Position numbers and translations under genes: made by a program. Positions 5,723 through 57,384 of a DNA stretch of 64,000 nt are shown here, piece by piece. How positions within the stretch are numbered: position 1 is the stretch's first letter; each line of letters begins with the position of its first letter. The notes under the pieces were generated by a model. That model did not search any database and was not told the origin of the DNA. It worked only from the letters and a program-made list of their open reading frames with translations. This DNA comes from Bacteroidota bacterium (GTDB lineage Bacteria; Bacteroidota; Bacteroidia; AKYH767-A; OLB10), in contig JANOXC010000103.1 in the NCBI GenBank assembly GCA_031418215.1, positions 47,323 through 111,322 on the forward strand. The letters are read 5' to 3'.

Positions 5723-7246
5723 TCAGGCAATAAGATTTTTCCCTGTCATCTCTGCAGGAACAGGAATATCCATTAACGATAAAATTGTTGGTGCAATGTC
5801 TGCGAGCCGCCCATTATTGAAATGTGTAACCTTTGCATCCTCTATCAAAATACAAGGAACAGGGTTGGTAGTATGTGCAGTATTGGGTGAGCCATCGGGA
5901 TTAATCATCATATCAGCATTCCCGTGATCAGCGATGATGATAAAGGAATAACCATTGGCACTTCCTGCTTCAACTACTTCCTTTAAACAGCGGTCTACGG
6001 TTTCAACTGCTTTAACTGCAGCAGCAAAAACGCCGGTATGTCCAACCATATCAGCATTGGCAAAATTAAGGCAAACAAAATCCGCTTCTCCTTTTTTCAA
6101 TTCTGCAACAATAGCATCTTTAACGGCAATGGCACTCATCTCGGGTTGCAAGTCATAGGTGGCAACCTTCGGAGAAGGAATCATGATACGTTGCTCACCA
6201 TTAAAAGGCAACTCTCTTCCACCTGAAAAGAAAAAGGTAACGTGCGGATATTTTTCTGTTTCTGCAATACGAATCTGTTTTTTACCAGCTTTCTCCAACA
6301 CTTCTCCTATTGTCATGCTGAGATTTTGCTTTTCATAAATTGTTTCTACGTTTTTATACGACTCCTCATAACGTGTCATAGTAACATAATGCAAATCCAA
6401 TTTCTTCATTCCCTGTTCCGGCATATCATTTTGGGTAAGCACTTGTGTTAGTTCACGCAAACGATCTGTACGAAAATTAAAACAAATGACAGTATCACCA
6501 TCTTTAATTTTCGCAAGCGGGTGACCGTGACTATCTGTTACAATTATTGGTTTAATAAATTCATCCGTCACATTGTTTGCATACGATTCCTCCACCCCAT
6601 TTCGCCAGTCTTCCAACTTCTCTCCAACTCCATTTACCATTGCATCATAAGCAATCTTCACCCGTTCCCAACGTTTGTCTCTATCCATTCCAAAATATCT
6701 TCCAGTTACTGTTGCAATTTTTCCAGTTGTTTTGTGAAGATGTAATTCCAAATCATGTAAAAAACCTAGTCCACTTTTAGGATCAGTATCCCGTCCGTCA
6801 GTCAATGCATGGATATATATTTTCTTCAACCCATAATCATTAGCAATGGTACACAGATGTTCAAGATGTTTTATATGAGAATGAACACCACCATCAGACA
6901 CTAAACCAATAAAATGCATTGCCACATCATTCTTCATTGCATATTCCATGGCATTTATCAATACGGGCATCTTGTCCAAGGTTCGCTCTCGTACTGCTTT
7001 GTTAATGCTTGCCAACTCCTGGTATACCACTCGTCCTGCACCAATATTTAAATGGCCCACTTCTGAATTTCCCATCTGTCCTTCAGGTAATCCAACATCT
7101 TCTCCGCTTGTTACCAATGTTGAATGCGGACGGTCAGCCATCAGCTGATCCATGAATGGAGTTTTTGCTTTCGCAATGGCATTGGCCTTTGTATCAGGAG
7201 CAAGGCCCCAGCCGTCGAGGATGATTAGTGCTACTTTTTTTGACAT
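5723..7246 (-). CDS. gpmI: 2,3-bisphosphoglycerate-independent phosphoglycerate mutase
   Basis: 507 aa. The N-terminus ALIILDGWG, with the catalytic Ser in the NSEVGH motif, is typical of iPGM. Confidence 0.95.
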   Translation of the reverse strand: MSKKVALIILDGWGLAPDTKANAIAKAKTPFMDQLMADRPHSTLVTSGEDVGLPEGQMGNSEVGHLNIGAGRVVYQELASINKAVRERTLDKMPVLINAMEYAMKNDVAMHFIGLVSDGGVHSHIKHLEHLCTIANDYGLKKIYIHALTDGRDTDPKSGLGFLHDLELHLHKTTGKIATVTGRYFGMDRDKRWERVKIAYDAMVNGVGEKLEDWRNGVEESYANNVTDEFIKPIIVTDSHGHPLAKIKDGDTVICFNFRTDRLRELTQVLTQNDMPEQGMKKLDLHYVTMTRYEESYKNVETIYEKQNLSMTIGEVLEKAGKKQIRIAETEKYPHVTFFFSGGRELPFNGEQRIMIPSPKVATYDLQPEMSAIAVKDAIVAELKKGEADFVCLNFANADMVGHTGVFAAAVKAVETVDRCLKEVVEAGSANGYSFIIIADHGNADMMINPDGSPNTAHTTNPVPCILIEDAKVTHFNNGRLADIAPTILSLMDIPVPAEMTGKNLIA

Positions 7247-7459
7247 TGTTTAGGTGACTTGGTTAGGAGGCTTGGAGGCTAGGGGGCTAAGATGCTAGGA
7301 GGCGAGGAGGTTACGAGGCTAGGGGGCTAGGAAGTGTTTAGGTAAAAAAATAAATTGGAGATTGCTATAATCGTTAAATTTAACATTTAATTTCTTCGCC
7401 TCTTTGCTTCTTCGCCTTTTCGCTTTTCACCACTTAGCTTCTTCTCGTTTCGCTATCTT
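7247..7459. repeat. low-complexity intergenic region: degenerate GA/CT-rich short tandem repeats (GGAGGCT/AGGGGGCTA units at 7260-7335; CTTCGCC/TTTCGC units at 7395-7459) flanking an AT-rich core
   Basis: Repeats are seen directly in the sequence. The region lies between the tyrS stop and the gpmI start, on the coding (minus) strand. Confidence 0.6.
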
Positions 7460-8737
7460 CTATTCCACTTTTAGTAAATAATAATTCTTCTTCCCTTTCT
7501 GCACCAATATATATTTTCCTTTTAATAATTGTTCTGAATTAATTTGTTGCTGGGGATCATCAATTTTTGACTTGTTGATGCTTACGCCGCCACCCTGTAT
7601 CATTTTTCTTGCTTCGCCCTTGGAGGGAAATACCTGTGTGTTTACAGATAATAAATCTACCAATGAAATTCCATTGCTGAGTTCTATTTTTGACAATGAC
7701 ATTTGAGGAACTCCTTCCATCACATTCAGCAATAGTTTTTCATCCAAGTTCAACAATGCTTCTGCAGTATCGTTGCCAAATAAAATCCCTGATGCTTCTA
7801 CTGCTGTATGATAATCATCTGCAGAATGAACACGCATCGATATATCTTTTGCCAATGCCTTTTGCAATATGCGTTTCTCAGGAGCAGCGAAATGTTGTAC
7901 TTCCAATTCTGCAATTTCCTCTTTGGTTAACAAAGTAAAAATCCTGATGTACTTTTTTACGTCTTCATCACTTGCATTCAACCAAAACTGGTAGAAATGA
8001 TATGGAGAAGTTTTAGCCGGATCGAGCCATACATTGCCTGCTTCCGTTTTACCAAACTTGCTTCCATCAGCCTTAGTAATCAACGGCGTAGTTAATGCAA
8101 ATGCTTCACCATTGTCTTTACGACGAATCAATTCTGTCCCCGTTACAATATTTCCCCACTGATCGCTGCCTCCCATCTGCAGCTTCACACCCTGGTGTTT
8201 CCATAAGTAATAGAAATCGTATCCTTGCACCAGCTGGTATGCAAATTCAGTGAAGGATAATCCAGACTCTAATCTTTTCTGAACAGAATCCTTAGAGAGC
8301 ATGTAGCTGATGGTAATATGTTTCCCTACATCACGGATAAAATCAAGAAATGAAAAATCTTTGAACCAATCATAGTTATTTACTATTTCAGCAGATTGTT
8401 CGCCTTTATCGAAATCCAAAAATTTCTCCAGCTGTTTACGTTGACATTGCAAATTATGTTGAAGTATGTCATCATTCAATAAATTTCGTTCCTGGCTCTT
8501 CCCGGATGGGTCGCCCACCATTCCTGTAGCTCCGCCAATCAAAGCAATGGGTGTATGCCCGGCGCGCTGAAAATGCAAGAGGATCATTATTTGTACAAGG
8601 TTCCCAACGCCTAATGAATCAGCAGTAGGATCAAATCCAATGTATCCTTTTACCCTTTCCTTTTTAAGGAGTTCTTCGGTGCCGGGCATCACATCATTTA
8701 ACATTCCACGCCACCGAAGTTCTTCAACAAAACTCAT
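7460..8737 (-). CDS. tyrS: tyrosine--tRNA ligase
   Basis: 425 aa. It has a class I aaRS fold with a KFGKT (KMSKS-like) motif and a C-terminal S4-like domain. Confidence 0.9.
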
Positions 8738-20225: not shown

Positions 20226-21791
20226 ATGTCAAAAGGCACTTCCGATATACTGTTCCGTTTTATTAAATCATTAACTCCTCCTGAAAAAAGGTATTTCAAA
20301 CTATTTGCCGCTCGTCATACCATAGGCAATAAAAACGAATACCTTAAGATGTTTGAAGCCATTGATAAAATGGAAGAATATGATGAACCTGTCCTTAAAC
20401 GCACCTTCCGCAGGTTAAAAGCCAAGAACTCTTTCTCGATCGCAAAAAACAGGTTGTATGAAACCATTCTTCGCAGCCTTGACGCCTATCACTCTGAAAG
20501 CTCTATAGATGTGCAGTTAAGAAGTCAGTTACATTATGCTGAAATACTTTACAAGAAATCCCTTTATGATGAATGCAGTAAAATGTTGGCAAAATCTAAA
20601 AAACTGGCGCAGCGTTATGAAAAACATTCCATCTTACTGGATATATATAAATGGGAAAAGAAACTTATTGAAAAAGACAGTTATGCCACAGTAACAGAAG
20701 TTGACCTTTTGCATTTCCTGGAAGAGGATATGCTGCTGCTTGATAAGATGAATAACTACAGTGATTTCTGGAACCTTAAAAGTCGGCTATTTTTTAAGTT
20801 AAACCGTTACGGAAAAGTACGCGACCTCCGTGAACTAGAAGAATTCAAAACGATTATTGATAATGTCCTGCTAAAAAGTGAAGAAGCTGCCCTTACTTAT
20901 GAAACACGTTGCCTGAATGCACATATATACAGCGCCTATTATTTCGGTATTGGTGATTACATTAACAGTTATCAATATATCAAAAAATACTTGTTATTGA
21001 TGGAGTCCAATCCGGAAATGCTACAGGAAGAACCCAATAAGTATTTCGCAGCCCTTAGTAATATCATCTACCTCTGCACACAACTTCACAAACATCGCGA
21101 AATACTTAAATTTCTTTCCAGGCTAAAAGAGATTCCTGCTATGCTCGGTAAAAAGACAACTGAAGATTTGGAGATAAAATTATTTTCCACCAGCCTCAGT
21201 GCTGAACTTACTTTATATATACAAACAGGGCAGTTTAAAAAGGCAGAAGCCCTGGTTCCCACAGTTATTAGCGGACTAAGAAAATACAAAGACAAAATCA
21301 ATAAAGTCCGCGAAGCATTTTTCTATTTTAATATTGCCATTGTTTATTTTGGATTGGGACAATATAATGAATCCCTGAAGTGGCTGAACCGGCTTTTGAA
21401 CGACAGTGACATGGATGCCAACCAGGATATTTATGCTTTAGCGAGGTTATTTGATTTAGTGGTACATCTCGAAATAGGTAACAATGAATTGATCCCATAC
21501 ACCTTGCGTTCGGTGCAGCGTTATCTAACTAAACGTAAAAGAATGTATAAGTTTGAAGCAGTTTTTCTTGACTTCATCAAGGTGATTGCCCGTTCAGGTA
21601 ATGAAAACTTAAATCACAGCTCTTTCGCACTACTTTATAATGAATTAATCAAACTAAACAAGGATCCGTTTGAAAAACCCGTTTTCGAGTACTTTGATTT
21701 TCTAACCTGGGCAGAAAGCAAACTGAAAAAAACAGGCTTTGCAGAACTTGTTAAACGGAATAGCATCGGCAAGAAAGACATTGCGGCATAA
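20226..21791 (+). CDS. hypothetical cytoplasmic helical (TPR-like) protein of unknown function
   Basis: 521-aa ORF with no signal peptide and all-alpha composition. It follows a 470-bp ORF-free intergenic region. Confidence 0.6.
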
Positions 21792-54567: not shown

Positions 54568-56121
54568 ATGAAACATTCCATTTTAACAATATTATTTGCA
54601 TTAAGTGCACTTATTACATCGGCTCAACAAACAAGTTTTGAATTAACTGCAAATATTACGAACAATGATGTGGCCGCAGATATAGTCGAAAACGCAGATG
54701 GTGATTTTGTTGCGGTAACAACAACCGTTGTTTCCAATAATTTTGATGTAACACTTATTAAATTTTCTGCTGCCGGAGTGGTACTTGCAACGGCAACTAT
54801 TGGCACATCGCAAAATGAGATTGCAAAGTCTATTTGCACCACTGCTGATGGTGGATATTTCATAACCGGGTATGCGAATACGACATTTAGCGACAATGAT
54901 GCGCTTGTAATAAAAGTTGATTCAAGTTTCCAGATTCAATTTATGAAAAGGTTTGGAACTACTCCGGGTAATGATTATGCAAACGAGGGATTTGAAGCCT
55001 CTCCAGGTCAATTTACTTTTACCGGTACTATTGCAATTGGAGGAAGTGCAAAGCCATCCAGGGTTACTTTGGATGAAAACGGTATTGTAATCAGTCAATC
55101 ATATTTGAACACCAATCAATTTGCCAGCCCGAATTACCGTGGAAACTATCTTGGCAATGGCTTAATTGGGTTCGCACATCTTTCAAATGCAATTTCTATT
55201 GTAGACACTTCCGGAAATGTTGTAAGGGATTTTCCTTTTACAGCAGGTACATTCACCTCTTCTGTCATAAGGACAAATGACGGTAAGTTTGTGGCTATTG
55301 GATTAGCAAACTTAGGTGGGTCAAGCACGACCGTTTCTTTTTGTAAAGCAGATACCACTACGAATTTACTTTCCATGACCAATGAATATGGATACAACGG
55401 CTTCAGCCTTGAGCCTGTAGGAATAGTTCAAGATGCTCAAAATAATTATTTCATTGCCGTTAACAAGATTGATAATGGCACCGGTTTCAGTAAAGCGATG
55501 GTTGTTAAAACAAATCCTTTAGGAACCGTTTTATGGGGTAAGCAATATAACGCTGTGTCAACAATTGATGGGCGCGTGAACAGTATAATTCTTACATCTG
55601 ATGGCGGAATTATGATTGCCGGAAGTATTGATTTAACCGGCACGAATCCTGATTTGTTTTTTGCTAAAATAGATTCTTTTGGTTCCAGTACATGTAATAC
55701 ATTAACTGTCACTATTGCATCATCAACTTATAGCCCAAATTCCGCTACACCGCATACTATGAATGCAGGGACAATAAACACCATTACTTTAGGAACACCC
55801 TATGATTTTCCTGTAACGCCGCTACCTAATTTAATGTGCATTACCATCGATATAAATGATGTCACAGCTAAAGATATGAGTGTTAAGGTATACCCAACCT
55901 TGTTTGATCAGTTTGTTACTGTTGAATCAGATGAACCATCACAACGCCTGAATGTTTGTATTACTGATCTGAATGGTAGCGAAGTTTTTAGAAAATCATT
56001 TTATGGAAATGAACAACTAAACCTCAGCAACCTTGCTTCTGGAAGTTATATTATTAATATTGAAAATGCAGAAAAGTCGCAGACTATTCACCGTAAACTG
56101 ATAAAAGCAACGTTTCATTAA
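54568..56121 (+). CDS. secreted beta-propeller-like repeat protein with a T9SS type-A C-terminal sorting domain
   Basis: It has the signal peptide MKHSILTILFALSALITSAQ and repeated 'DGG..I.G' blades. The C-terminus 'VKVYPTLFDQFVTVE...SGSYIINIEN...' matches a Por sorting domain. Confidence 0.75.
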   Translation: MKHSILTILFALSALITSAQQTSFELTANITNNDVAADIVENADGDFVAVTTTVVSNNFDVTLIKFSAAGVVLATATIGTSQNEIAKSICTTADGGYFITGYANTTFSDNDALVIKVDSSFQIQFMKRFGTTPGNDYANEGFEASPGQFTFTGTIAIGGSAKPSRVTLDENGIVISQSYLNTNQFASPNYRGNYLGNGLIGFAHLSNAISIVDTSGNVVRDFPFTAGTFTSSVIRTNDGKFVAIGLANLGGSSTTVSFCKADTTTNLLSMTNEYGYNGFSLEPVGIVQDAQNNYFIAVNKIDNGTGFSKAMVVKTNPLGTVLWGKQYNAVSTIDGRVNSIILTSDGGIMIAGSIDLTGTNPDLFFAKIDSFGSSTCNTLTVTIASSTYSPNSATPHTMNAGTINTITLGTPYDFPVTPLPNLMCITIDINDVTAKDMSVKVYPTLFDQFVTVESDEPSQRLNVCITDLNGSEVFRKSFYGNEQLNLSNLASGSYIINIENAEKSQTIHRKLIKATFH

Positions 56122-56255
56122 GTTATAGTTTACAATACTGCACTTTATTTTAATTACGACCATGTTTTTTCTATTGAGTTTTTATGCGGAAGAAGGAATA
56201 GAAACAAACAGCTAACTGCTTTTCGTTATTGTTTTCTCAAGGCATCATCCTTAAT

Positions 56256-56723
56256 TTCACGCAGAGAACGCTGAGGAGCGGAGAACGCAGCTATGAAAAT
56301 AAATGAAATTACTTCGGTTGTAATTGAAGAAAGTATATATATACACCGATCACTTGGGCCGGGTTTATTTGAATCGGTTTATGAAGAAGTGCTTGCTTAT
56401 CGTTTAACAAAACGTGGCTTGATGGTCAAATGCCAAAAAGGAATTCCCGTTTTGTTTGAAGATGTTAAAATGAATGTTGGTTTCCGCGCTGATTTAATAG
56501 TGAATGATAAAGTCCTGTTAGAAATTAAATCCCTGGAAGTAGTTCCCAAAGTTGCAGAAAAGCAGGTTATGACTTATTTACGTTTAAGCGGAATACAAAT
56601 TGGATTGTTAATCAATTTTAATGTGGAAAGATTAGTGGATGGAGTTAAGCGTATTGCAAATCACTATAAAGAAGATTAACATTCCTCTGCGCCCTCCGCC
56701 TCTCTGCTTCCTCTGCGTGAAAT
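56256..56723. other. GC-rich cassette: GxxExxY gene flanked by approximately 38-bp imperfect terminal inverted repeats (12-bp perfect core TTTCACGCAGAG / CTCTGCGTGAAA)
   Basis: Left IR is at 56256-56292 and right IR at 56684-56723. The arms are about 70% complementary overall. Their GC-rich composition contrasts with the AT-rich surroundings. Confidence 0.55.
56293..56679 (+). CDS. GxxExxY protein (PD-(D/E)XK nuclease superfamily)
   Basis: 128 aa with the 'GPGLFESVYEEVL' motif (GxxExxY). It has a D...E.K-like core (ADLIVNDKVLLEIKS). Confidence 0.8.
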   Translation: MKINEITSVVIEESIYIHRSLGPGLFESVYEEVLAYRLTKRGLMVKCQKGIPVLFEDVKMNVGFRADLIVNDKVLLEIKSLEVVPKVAEKQVMTYLRLSGIQIGLLINFNVERLVDGVKRIANHYKED

Positions 56724-56733
56724 GAATGGATTA

Positions 56734-57384
56734 TCAATGCTTGAGTTTATCCTTAAAAACCTTCTTAAACTTATCCAACTTAGGTTCAATTACCATGGAA
56801 CAATAAGGCTGGTTCTTATTGTTATTGTAATAATCCTGGTGATATTTCTCTGCACTGAAAAATTTAGTGTATGGGGAGATTTCTGTTACCACAGGTTTAG
56901 TAAATGATCCTGATTTATCCAGTTCAGCTTTATAATGCTCCGCTAATTTTTTTTGTTCTTCATTGTGATAAAAAACTACAGAACGGTATTGTGTTCCGAT
57001 ATCTGCACCCTGTCTGTTTAATGTTGTAGGATCATGAACTGTCCAGAATACCTCCAGCAATTCTGTAAAAGATATTTTCGTTGGATCATAAACAATCTGG
57101 CACACTTCTGCATGTCCTGTTTCTCCTGAACAAACAGCTTCATAGGACGGATTATCTGATTCCCCTCCGGCAAATCCTGAAGTAACTTTCTCGACTCCAA
57201 CCAACTGCTGGTAAACAGCCTCCACGCACCAAAAACAACCGGCACCAAATGTGGCGGTATCAATTTTACTATTCACTTTATTTCCTGTCTCCATATTTTT
57301 TAGATGTATTTCTTTAGCCGGCTGCCCGCATGCAATGCAGGAGAAAAGCATAAATATATATATAATTCCTGAAATATTTTTCAT
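56734..57384 (-). CDS. msrA: peptide-methionine (S)-S-oxide reductase MsrA, exported/lipoprotein form
   Basis: The GCFWC active-site motif is present and there is an N-terminal signal or lipobox (LFSCIAC). The protein is 216 aa. Confidence 0.9.
   Translation of the reverse strand: MKNISGIIYIFMLFSCIACGQPAKEIHLKNMETGNKVNSKIDTATFGAGCFWCVEAVYQQLVGVEKVTSGFAGGESDNPSYEAVCSGETGHAEVCQIVYDPTKISFTELLEVFWTVHDPTTLNRQGADIGTQYRSVVFYHNEEQKKLAEHYKAELDKSGSFTKPVVTEISPYTKFFSAEKYHQDYYNNNKNQPYCSMVIEPKLDKFKKVFKDKLKH

Follow-up and report, generated by a model that had tools for sequence, protein, structure and literature searches.

The element considered here is a short gene of the GxxExxY family, predicted to encode a nuclease, that is held between two inverted-repeat arms in a 64,000-nucleotide stretch of DNA (the window) from a Bacteroidota bacterium (GenBank assembly GCA_031418215.1, contig JANOXC010000103.1, positions 47,323 to 111,322). 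Its closest described counterparts include the intervening sequences (IVSs) of 23S rRNA genes and the association of repetitive extragenic palindromes (REPs), and their REPIN doublets, with RAYT genes, for which we follow a published account (PMC3116915). IVSs are bordered by complementary sequences that are cut by RNase III, measure 428 to 444 nt in Coxiella, and carry open reading frames (ORFs) for S23p/four-helix-bundle proteins in Coxiella, Leptospira, Brucella, and Xanthomonas (PMC4990558). The original prediction for this locus, made from the letters of the window alone, took GxxExxY genes to be known occupants of such IVSs; no record of that kind was found, the IVS ORFs of the literature being those of the four-helix-bundle family. 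Two other systems invite comparison. The attC sites of integron cassettes have the cores RYYYAAC/GTTRRRY and the layout of a bulged hairpin with extrahelical bases. The short tandemly repeated repetitive (STRR) heptamers of heterocystous cyanobacteria form direct tandem arrays and are not, to our knowledge, described as bracketing genes. The GxxExxY/PDDEXK_3 family itself is very large and has no known function, and its genomic setting was not found described: the literature on GxxExxY, PDDEXK_3/PF13366, TIGR04256, the IVS protein family, and the repeat sequence contained no account of the architecture reported below, informal curator notes being possible. We present evidence that this architecture, arm-ORF-arm, is very probably a discrete unit of insertion.

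The inverted repeats at the window locus are real. An inverted-repeat search returned two 40-nt arms that are 80% complementary with 396 nt between them. A pairing score was obtained by aligning the 150 nt upstream of the ORF to the reverse complement of the 150 nt downstream; the window locus scored 44, compared with a 95th percentile of 20 and a maximum of 25 for control positions in related loci. The perfect 12-nt core that had been claimed, TTTCACGCAGAG, occurs exactly twice in the window and forms the outer tip of each arm, as TTTCACGCAGAG at 56255-56266 on the plus strand in the left arm and as CTCTGCGTGAAA at 56711-56722, the minus-strand copy, in the right arm. Both arms also hold a pair of sub-repeats spaced at 17 nt. 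In the left arm these are two copies of GC(A/G)GAGAACGC (56261-56271 and 56278-56288), and in the right arm two CTCTGC(G/T)-type copies (56685-56699 and 56702-56716) that are the pyrimidine mirror of the left; matches to the unit pattern described below fall at 56261-56283 and, on the minus strand, at 56685-56716. The arms abut the ORF, as had been stated, with the ATG at 56293 coming 2 nt after the end of the left arm and the right arm starting 5 to 8 nt past the stop (56679) and ending 8 nt from the msrA stop codon. The description of the cassette as GC rich holds for the arms (58% and 62% GC) but not for the whole unit, which at 37.7% GC is close to the window (38.3%), nor for the ORF, at 33%; the flanking DNA lies at 31 to 37%. 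The locus was found base for base on 18 metagenome or metagenome-assembled genome (MAG) contigs, and its closest relatives, to judge by their names, point to a Chitinophagales-like host within the Bacteroidota. Contig breaks near the left arm were considered as a sign of genomic repetition and set aside, because the break positions upstream vary and are uninformative.

The same arrangement was found widely. Eighty loci with relatives 49 to 73% identical were sampled, one genome per species, and 75 of them had full flanks. The inverted-repeat score exceeded the control 95th percentile in 59 of the 75, with a median of 32 compared with 16 for the controls. The repeats are thus neither unique nor confined to one site, as the original prediction had allowed that they might prove to be; the architecture flanks most GxxExxY genes, in many phyla. 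The loci came from Bacteroidota (several orders), Acidobacteriota, Ignavibacteriota, Nitrospirota, Chloroflexota, Planctomycetota, and other phyla, at least seven in number, and a Gemmatimonadota locus on a Gemmatirosa replicon from the plasmid collection has the same arrangement. At nearly all loci each arm is built of tandem 8- to 9-nt GCNRAG units (GCAAAG, GCAGAG, GCACAG, GCAGCG, and others), one arm being purine-rich and the other pyrimidine-rich, and the typical arm tips across loci are TTTCACGC ... GCGTGAAA. Matches to the unit repeat are concentrated within 100 nt of the ORF ends, only 9 of 222 lying more than 1 kb away. No other gene family was bracketed by arms within the 80 GxxExxY loci, where the only other bracketed frames were spurious ORFs made by the repeats. 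Tips point outward, as in the window, about two to four times as often as inward, both in cassettes and in the solo hairpins described below. Since both polarities exist, the constant feature is that the two arms can pair, not the direction of the tips.

Arms and ORF travel and diversify together. The median arm-to-arm score is 32 within a locus, compared with 19 between loci. In 16 tip-anchored cassettes, 83.5% of cells pair, compared with 64.2% when partners are shuffled among loci (none of 500 shuffles reached the observed value), and changes on both sides were seen at 28 of 30 pairs, slid-register controls giving 35 to 53%; these loci were pre-selected for a complementarity of at least 20/30, and the columns are not strictly homologous, the units being of 8 or 9 nt. 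Variants of the unit are lineage-specific and occur in both arms together, as with GCAGCG in place of GCAAAG at L059, L070, and L088. At an insertion site between nuoF and nuoG, the left and right arms of one locus agree at a mean of 21.9/30 positions, while left arms of different genera agree at 16.9/30. Arm similarity increases with protein identity (Spearman 0.46). The window gene has an orthologue in a related species, also beside msrA, with a protein that is 81% identical (L092); its arms differ in sequence from those of the window and are still complementary, so that the repeats are kept while their sequence has diverged.

The nuoF-nuoG site gives the clearest view of presence and absence. 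Lacibacter luteus (L043) has the cassette within its nuo operon, in the order nuoF, arm, GxxExxY, arm, nuoG, nuoH, and the site is occupied in about 10 Chitinophagaceae species. Four Chitinophagaceae relatives have an empty site, with a nuoF-nuoG spacer of 15 to 43 nt and no hairpin, and one of these has a NuoG that is 92% identical to that of L. luteus. In ten filled sites, 0 to 6 nt lie between the nuoF stop and the start of the TTTCACGC tip, and 6 to 15 nt between the end of the GCGTGAAA tip and the nuoG ATG. With the tips at the very edges of nuoF and nuoG, a filled site differs from an empty one by exactly the unit that the repeats bound. Close homologues are also found at differing sites, beside msrA in the window, L092, and L094, and between hisS and hutH at L091 and in the genome of P0006. 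The proteins from the latter two organisms, where the gene lies between hisS and an aromatic-lyase gene, are 77 to 79% identical to that of the window. The small insertion element that the original prediction proposed is supported in so far as the unit is discrete, recurs, and is present or absent at nuoF-nuoG; that it is autonomous is unproven. No target-site duplication (TSD) was visible at the window element or at the filled nuoF-nuoG sites, and none was found at 34 hairpins, where the mean adjacent direct repeat was 0.91 compared with 0.97 for permuted flanks.

Arms also occur without the gene. Public metagenome contigs and IMG/VR were scanned with one common arm variant, CACGCAAAGNCGCNAAGNNGCAAAG, which matched at least 120 metagenome stretches and 58 IMG/VR stretches on contigs ranging from 35% to 76% GC. 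Among the matches listed, a GxxExxY segment is present in 6 of 178 loci. A strong downstream inverted partner, usually 0 to 92 nt away, accompanies 65 of 211 arm matches, which we call solo hairpins, and about 130 arms lack any strong partner over a distance of 1.6 kb. Loops of ORF size (400 to 550 nt) nearly all contain GxxExxY genes, and the solo hairpins are mainly intergenic and occur in every gene-orientation context. The 58 IMG/VR contigs, all classed as viral (L220-L277), carry CACGCAAAGNCGCNAAGNNGCAAAG, and a GxxExxY gene is present on none of them. On the Gemmatirosa replicon (L279), one complete hairpin occupies the loop of another, larger member of its family (1690-1860), and its loop sequence (...AGAGAGTTGGTTTCCTCTG) recurs in the hairpin beside the GxxExxY gene about 18.7 kb away (about 20400-20475), with which a solo hairpin of this replicon shares its loop. 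A stretch of 1.4 kb in another locus (L142, 1-1414) contains four hairpins of one family.

The coordinates of the arms, the genes, and the related features are collected in Table 1. Profile matches bore out the predicted setting of the cassette between a type IX secretion system (T9SS) cargo gene and msrA. Other ORFs around the cassette encode a cytochrome c, a DAO oxidoreductase, and a CHU_C adhesin-like protein. Rfam gave no family in the 64-kb window at gathering thresholds, and none for the element at E values up to 5 or for ten solo hairpins, the only hits being generic long-hairpin matches to plant miRNA precursors; a search of the window for tRNA and tmRNA genes found none.

Table 1. 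Positions of the cassette components, neighboring genes, and related features (window numbering unless a locus is named)
Feature	Position	Strand	Description and basis
Left (upstream) inverted-repeat arm	56251-56290	+	40 nt, 58% GC, purine-rich strand on +
GxxExxY/PDDEXK_3 gene, 128 aa	56293-56679	+	ORF list; TIGR04256 and PF13366 profile matches
Right (downstream) inverted-repeat arm	56687-56726	+	40 nt, 62% GC, pyrimidine-rich strand on +
T9SS-tail protein gene, upstream neighbor, co-directional	54568-56121	+	Profile matches
AT-rich spacer, T9SS-tail gene to left arm	56122-56250	+	31% GC; sequence and GC content
msrA, downstream neighbor, convergent	56734-57384	-	Profile matches
gpmI/tyrS spacer with ORF-less arm pair of similar style	7247-7459		gpmI at 5723-7246 (-), tyrS at 7460-8737 (-)
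Four-helix-bundle gene (S23p/Avd-like)	L279, 33757-34296 (Gemmatirosa kalamazoonensis plasmid 1)	-	(GGCAGGAG)x4 plus inverted copy

Several details of individual loci deserve mention. The ORF-less arm pair between gpmI and tyrS consists of purine-rich 8-nt units (GGCTAGGG, GGCTAAGA, TGCTAGGA, GGCGAGGA, and so on) and, beyond 74 nt of AT-rich sequence, a pyrimidine-rich arm that mirrors them. Its arms (7285-7313 and 7388-7416) are 76% complementary, and the units are like those at a four-helix-bundle gene in a Bacteroidales MAG (L089). Folded as DNA, this repeat did no better than shuffled sequences (z of -0.9), and for that reason it can be called only a possible degenerate relative of the arms; it may be a degenerate relic. 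The L092 locus has two right arms (within 2251-2640), the first abutting the ORF stop and the second, about 330 nt further on, abutting msrA at the same position as the right arm of the window. The 330 nt between them may represent a decayed second cargo. At five loci (L013, L015, L018, L025, and L048), a conserved TTAACCTT(A)AAAA lies between the arm and the ATG, 20 to 30 nt upstream of the start codon. This motif, shared by several Chitinophagales loci, may be an element-borne translation or promoter signal; the window copy, whose arm stops 2 nt short of the ATG, lacks it. At L137 (1-1100), tandem GxxExxY genes are each followed by a near-identical hairpin and a shared 5' gene segment, a layout that suggests gene conversion or recent duplication.

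The 128-aa product belongs to the GxxExxY family, as had been proposed. TIGR04256 matched it with 124.7 bits (cut-off, 35; E value, 2e-36) over profile positions 2 to 115 of 116, and PF13366 matched it with 120.5 bits (cut-off, 22; E value, 6e-35). The motifs G24xxE27xxY30, D67, E77-x-K79, and Q91xxxY95 are intact in the window protein. All 75 aligned members, that of the window included, have G24, E27, Y30, D67, K79, and Y95; E77 is found in 73 of them, as is Q91. An AlphaFold2 model (pLDDT of 88.6) shows a compact alpha/beta PD-(D/E)XK domain, whose best Foldseek matches in the PDB, all weak, were Cas4 SSO0001 and lambda-type exonucleases; a sequence search of the PDB returned no relative at E values up to 1. 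Residues E27, D67, E77, K79, Q91, and Y95 make up the RecB-family motif set, and the protein, a minimal RecB/Cas4-like PD-(D/E)XK nuclease, is therefore very likely active as an enzyme, with DNA as its most likely substrate. The protein had no PADLOC match to a known defense system and no PHROGs match to a phage family. Relatives are rare on plasmids, being found in just 8 of 72,556 records, and the family as a whole, clustered at 50% identity, has 15,281 representatives that match at E values up to 0.001. Some of these representatives (P0241-P0246 and others) are 270 to 295 aa long with two GxxExxY domains, and are fused tandem copies or products of read-through over two adjacent cassettes. 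Members of the family in databases, among them P0005-P0013, P0030, P0059, P0063, and P0113, often bear false tails at the N or C terminus, FHAEGAEKQSKTEK and MFSLRLLPLRSPCVK being examples. Such tails, for example ...FHAEGAEKQ... and ...SLCVK..., are the translated flanking arms, gene callers having read into them. Annotation is affected accordingly: the arms are regularly mistranslated into false extensions and small ORFs, and this may extend to many small ORFs in these phyla.

The bracket is shared with an unrelated protein family. Outside rRNA, four-helix-bundle genes (TIGR02436) have the same purine/pyrimidine unit-repeat bracket, the example on Gemmatirosa kalamazoonensis plasmid 1 being listed in Table 1. 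Further brackets have GGGACTGG-type units (L089, the Bacteroidales MAG) and GGGTGCCG-type units (L176), and four-helix-bundle genes on Nostoc (L280) and Leptolyngbya (L281) plasmids have GCAGGGA and GGAGA-type units in inverted arrangement. No inverted bracket was seen at L282, L283, or L098 (downstream flank readable alone), and that at L075 is weak at best. Two unrelated small proteins thus use the same kind of vehicle, of which the rRNA IVS looks to be a special case. None of the fetched loci had a GxxExxY gene in an rRNA gene; a search of all of them for 23S and 16S rRNA signatures gave three weak 23S-type motif matches, far from the arms and unconfirmed by Rfam. The window element itself lies between the T9SS-tail gene and msrA and not in helix 9, 25, or 45 of an rRNA gene, and a jackhmmer search of the window found no four-helix-bundle protein, the cassette ORF being PDDEXK_3. 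On the Pseudanabaena galeata plasmid pPg_04 (L283, 1-228), a four-helix-bundle gene stands directly 3' of cas2. The IVS-protein family has reportedly been listed among cas-associated genes in a Pfam-based study.

The orientation of neighboring genes bears on how the cassette is expressed. The upstream neighbor is on the same strand in 72 of the 75 loci, compared with 143 of 195 (73%) control adjacent pairs from the same loci (binomial P of about 3e-7); orthologous loci inflate the co-directional count somewhat, and the bias is strong nonetheless. The median upstream gap is 95 nt, and the downstream neighbor is co-directional in 51 of 63 loci. The upstream bias suggests that the cassette lacks a promoter and is probably expressed by read-through from the upstream gene, and the spacer at the window locus is presumed to be the path of that read-through. 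A search for sigma-70-like promoters on the plus strand at the window locus found none, in a scan that does not cover Bacteroidota promoters. When 56240-56740 was folded as RNA, a check that the original prediction had named, the two arms paired as the stem that closes the minimum-free-energy structure of either strand, with z-scores of -3.9 (plus) and -6.4 (minus).

Taken together, the observations are best explained by a widespread insertion cassette that is read through from upstream, folds into an IVS-like stem, and encodes a nuclease that acts on hairpins, an explanation that as a whole we consider evenly poised between right and wrong. In the sequence of events that we propose, the cassette would be transcribed by read-through from the upstream gene. 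The arms would then pair in the transcript to give a stem of about 35 to 40 bp that encloses the ORF, whose start codon lies 2 nt in from the stem, much as in an IVS; RNase III would probably cut this stem, so that the cassette RNA would be freed from the host message and translation of the nuclease would be gated. Finally, the nuclease would act on the DNA hairpin or inverted repeat, single-stranded or extruded, and would spread or maintain the cassettes and their ORF-less relatives, a PD-(D/E)XK analogue of the REP/REPIN-RAYT relationship. The stem with RNase III processing, for which IVSs are the model, is tentative and somewhat short of an even chance, and propagation of hairpins driven by the nuclease, again argued by analogy, is a little more doubtful.

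A number of findings weigh against this explanation. No identical copies were seen at two sites, which leaves no direct evidence of transposition, and the window contains no further copy of the arm sequence. Each chromosomal site (msrA, nuoF-nuoG, hisS-hutH) is conserved within its clade, and for this reason movement must be rare; the pattern of presence and absence could arise in part from precise loss. A clean empty site for the window locus, which the original prediction had proposed to look for and which was sought among MsrA relatives, was not found. Among those relatives, L094 (90%) and L092 (81%) carry the cassette, and L095, L096, and L098 are without it but cannot serve as clean empty sites because their downstream synteny differs. 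Moreover, about one-third of paired cassettes have "inside-out" arms, with GTGAAA/TTTCAC tips beside the ORF, which argues against polar, transposase-style recognition of the ends, and we know of no strand-transfer activity in a RecB-like nuclease of about 125 aa. With respect to expression, in many loci the start codon comes 30 to 100 nt after the upstream arm, and an internal promoter is therefore possible there. With respect to the transcript, mismatches between arms comprise 54 sense-type and 64 antisense-type transitions, so there is no strand-specific tolerance of G-U pairs and the RNA-pairing step has no positive sequence signature, a test that speaks neither for nor against RNA pairing. 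The preselection of loci and the imperfect homology of columns in the co-variation analysis, given above, belong here as well.

The main rival to the insertion cassette is a domesticated host nuclease gene with a regulatory RNA stem, serving stability, translational gating, or RNase III control, that does not move; the ORF-less hairpins would then be unrelated REP-like or terminator-like elements with similar units. The co-directional upstream neighbor in 72 of 75 loci and the start codon 2 nt inside the stem would suit such a gene well, as would its clade-conserved location and the strong purifying selection on the protein. The occurrence of both arm polarities also fits a need for pairing rather than for particular end sequences. 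However, close relatives differ by the presence or absence of the whole block, whose boundaries fall exactly at the arm tips, and the same arms occur in dozens of unrelated contexts, with near-identical motifs across phyla. An unrelated four-helix-bundle family has the same bracket, one hairpin is nested within another, and G-U asymmetry is lacking. The domesticated-gene reading is hard to square with the block presence and absence, the varied contexts, the shared bracket, and the nesting, and we consider it unlikely.

An integron-like cassette, moved through attC-like single-strand recombination hairpins by a tyrosine recombinase encoded elsewhere, would account for a small, promoter-less-looking ORF co-oriented with upstream transcription, for the hairpin flanks, and for block presence and absence without a TSD; some loci (L011 and L137) even have hairpin-ORF-hairpin or tandem ORF-hairpin arrays. 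The cassettes are, however, single and placed behind housekeeping genes, and no integrase was found in the window over about 4 kb of upstream and 5 kb of downstream sequence. In the form seen most often, a single palindrome is split by the ORF, which does not stand next to a complete one. The tips are TTTCACGC/GCGTGAAA and not attC cores, and the arms are long, regular unit repeats, not bulged hairpins. We regard this origin as very improbable. Slightly less probable still is a classical terminal inverted repeat (TIR) transposon, whose arms would be bound by a transposase in cut-and-paste movement and whose derivatives would resemble miniature inverted-repeat transposable elements (MITEs). It would explain the terminal inverted repeats with their conserved tips and internal sub-repeats, the many ORF-less copies, and the block presence and absence, but there is no TSD, and the sole ORF encodes a RecB-like nuclease of about 125 aa and not a DDE, HUH, serine, or tyrosine recombinase. 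The tips, moreover, face inward in about one-third of cassettes and about one-fifth of solo hairpins, and the copy number in the window is very low. Both the integron and the transposon readings fail because attC cores and an integrase are missing from the one and a TSD and a transposase from the other. A chance inverted repeat or a pair of ordinary terminators around an ordinary gene, which the position between convergent genes, where hairpins are common, might suggest, is refuted by the recurrence in 59 of 75 loci and by the score of 44 against a control maximum of 25, and since each arm alone is purine-only or pyrimidine-only and unable to form a local hairpin, its probability is close to nil.

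Read as an insertion cassette, the element belongs with the palindrome-associated selfish elements, with a real chance of being a new class. A still broader proposal, that GxxExxY cassettes, four-helix-bundle cassettes, ORF-less unit hairpins, and ORF-bearing 23S rRNA IVSs form one superfamily of selfish elements, would have them spread by an undescribed, TSD-less action of a minimal RecB/Cas4-like nuclease on DNA hairpins and kept harmless by RNase III excision from host transcripts; we put it forward as rather unlikely. A cassette bounded by inverted repeats and dependent on read-through provides the GxxExxY family with a concrete, testable biology. The finding also links three separate puzzles: the origin of ORF-bearing rRNA IVSs, the four-helix-bundle (S23p/Avd-like) proteins that are not part of diversity-generating retroelements, and the strand-asymmetric hairpins made of tandem units that many phyla contain.

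The cassette can be set beside several known systems. Like the STRRs, the arms are intergenic and consist of short (7 to 8 nt), strand-asymmetric tandem units, and similar units flank the four-helix-bundle genes of Nostoc and Leptolyngbya. With integron cassettes it shares a small, seemingly promoter-less ORF, an apparent dependence on transcription from upstream, and bounding sites that form hairpins; the GxxExxY cassettes differ in being single and scattered, in having neither an integrase nor attC core motifs, and in placing the ORF inside a split palindrome. Insertion sequence (IS) elements with MITE derivatives likewise have terminal inverted repeats, ORF-less derivatives, and presence/absence polymorphism, whereas the cassette has no TSD and no recognizable transposase, and the polarity of its arms relative to the ORF varies.

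In REP/REPIN-RAYT systems, RAYT is an HUH/Y1 (IS200/IS605-type) transposase, whereas the cassette protein is RecB/Cas4-like and matches PDDEXK_3/GxxExxY alone, and REPs are genus-specific, whereas the arm motifs of the cassette cross phyla and the arms are tandem 8- to 9-nt units. As for ORF-less copies in the same genome, the 64-kb window has no further copy of the arm sequence, and one Gemmatirosa replicon has a solo hairpin that shares its loop with the hairpin next to the GxxExxY gene. In both systems, however, a single protein gene lies between inverted palindromic repeats, ORF-less hairpins (REPIN-like doublets) are far commoner than gene-bearing ones, there is no TSD, and the elements are mostly intergenic and largely inherited vertically, with rare movement. 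Finally, the window element differs from an IVS in lying outside rRNA and in having an ORF for a PD-(D/E)XK nuclease and not for S23p. Its arms, at 40 nt and 80% complementarity, nevertheless make a closing stem of the IVS kind, and like an IVS it is an element of about 450 nt whose complementary borders form a long stem around a small ORF, probably a passenger of its host transcript with a sporadic distribution that suggests horizontal spread.

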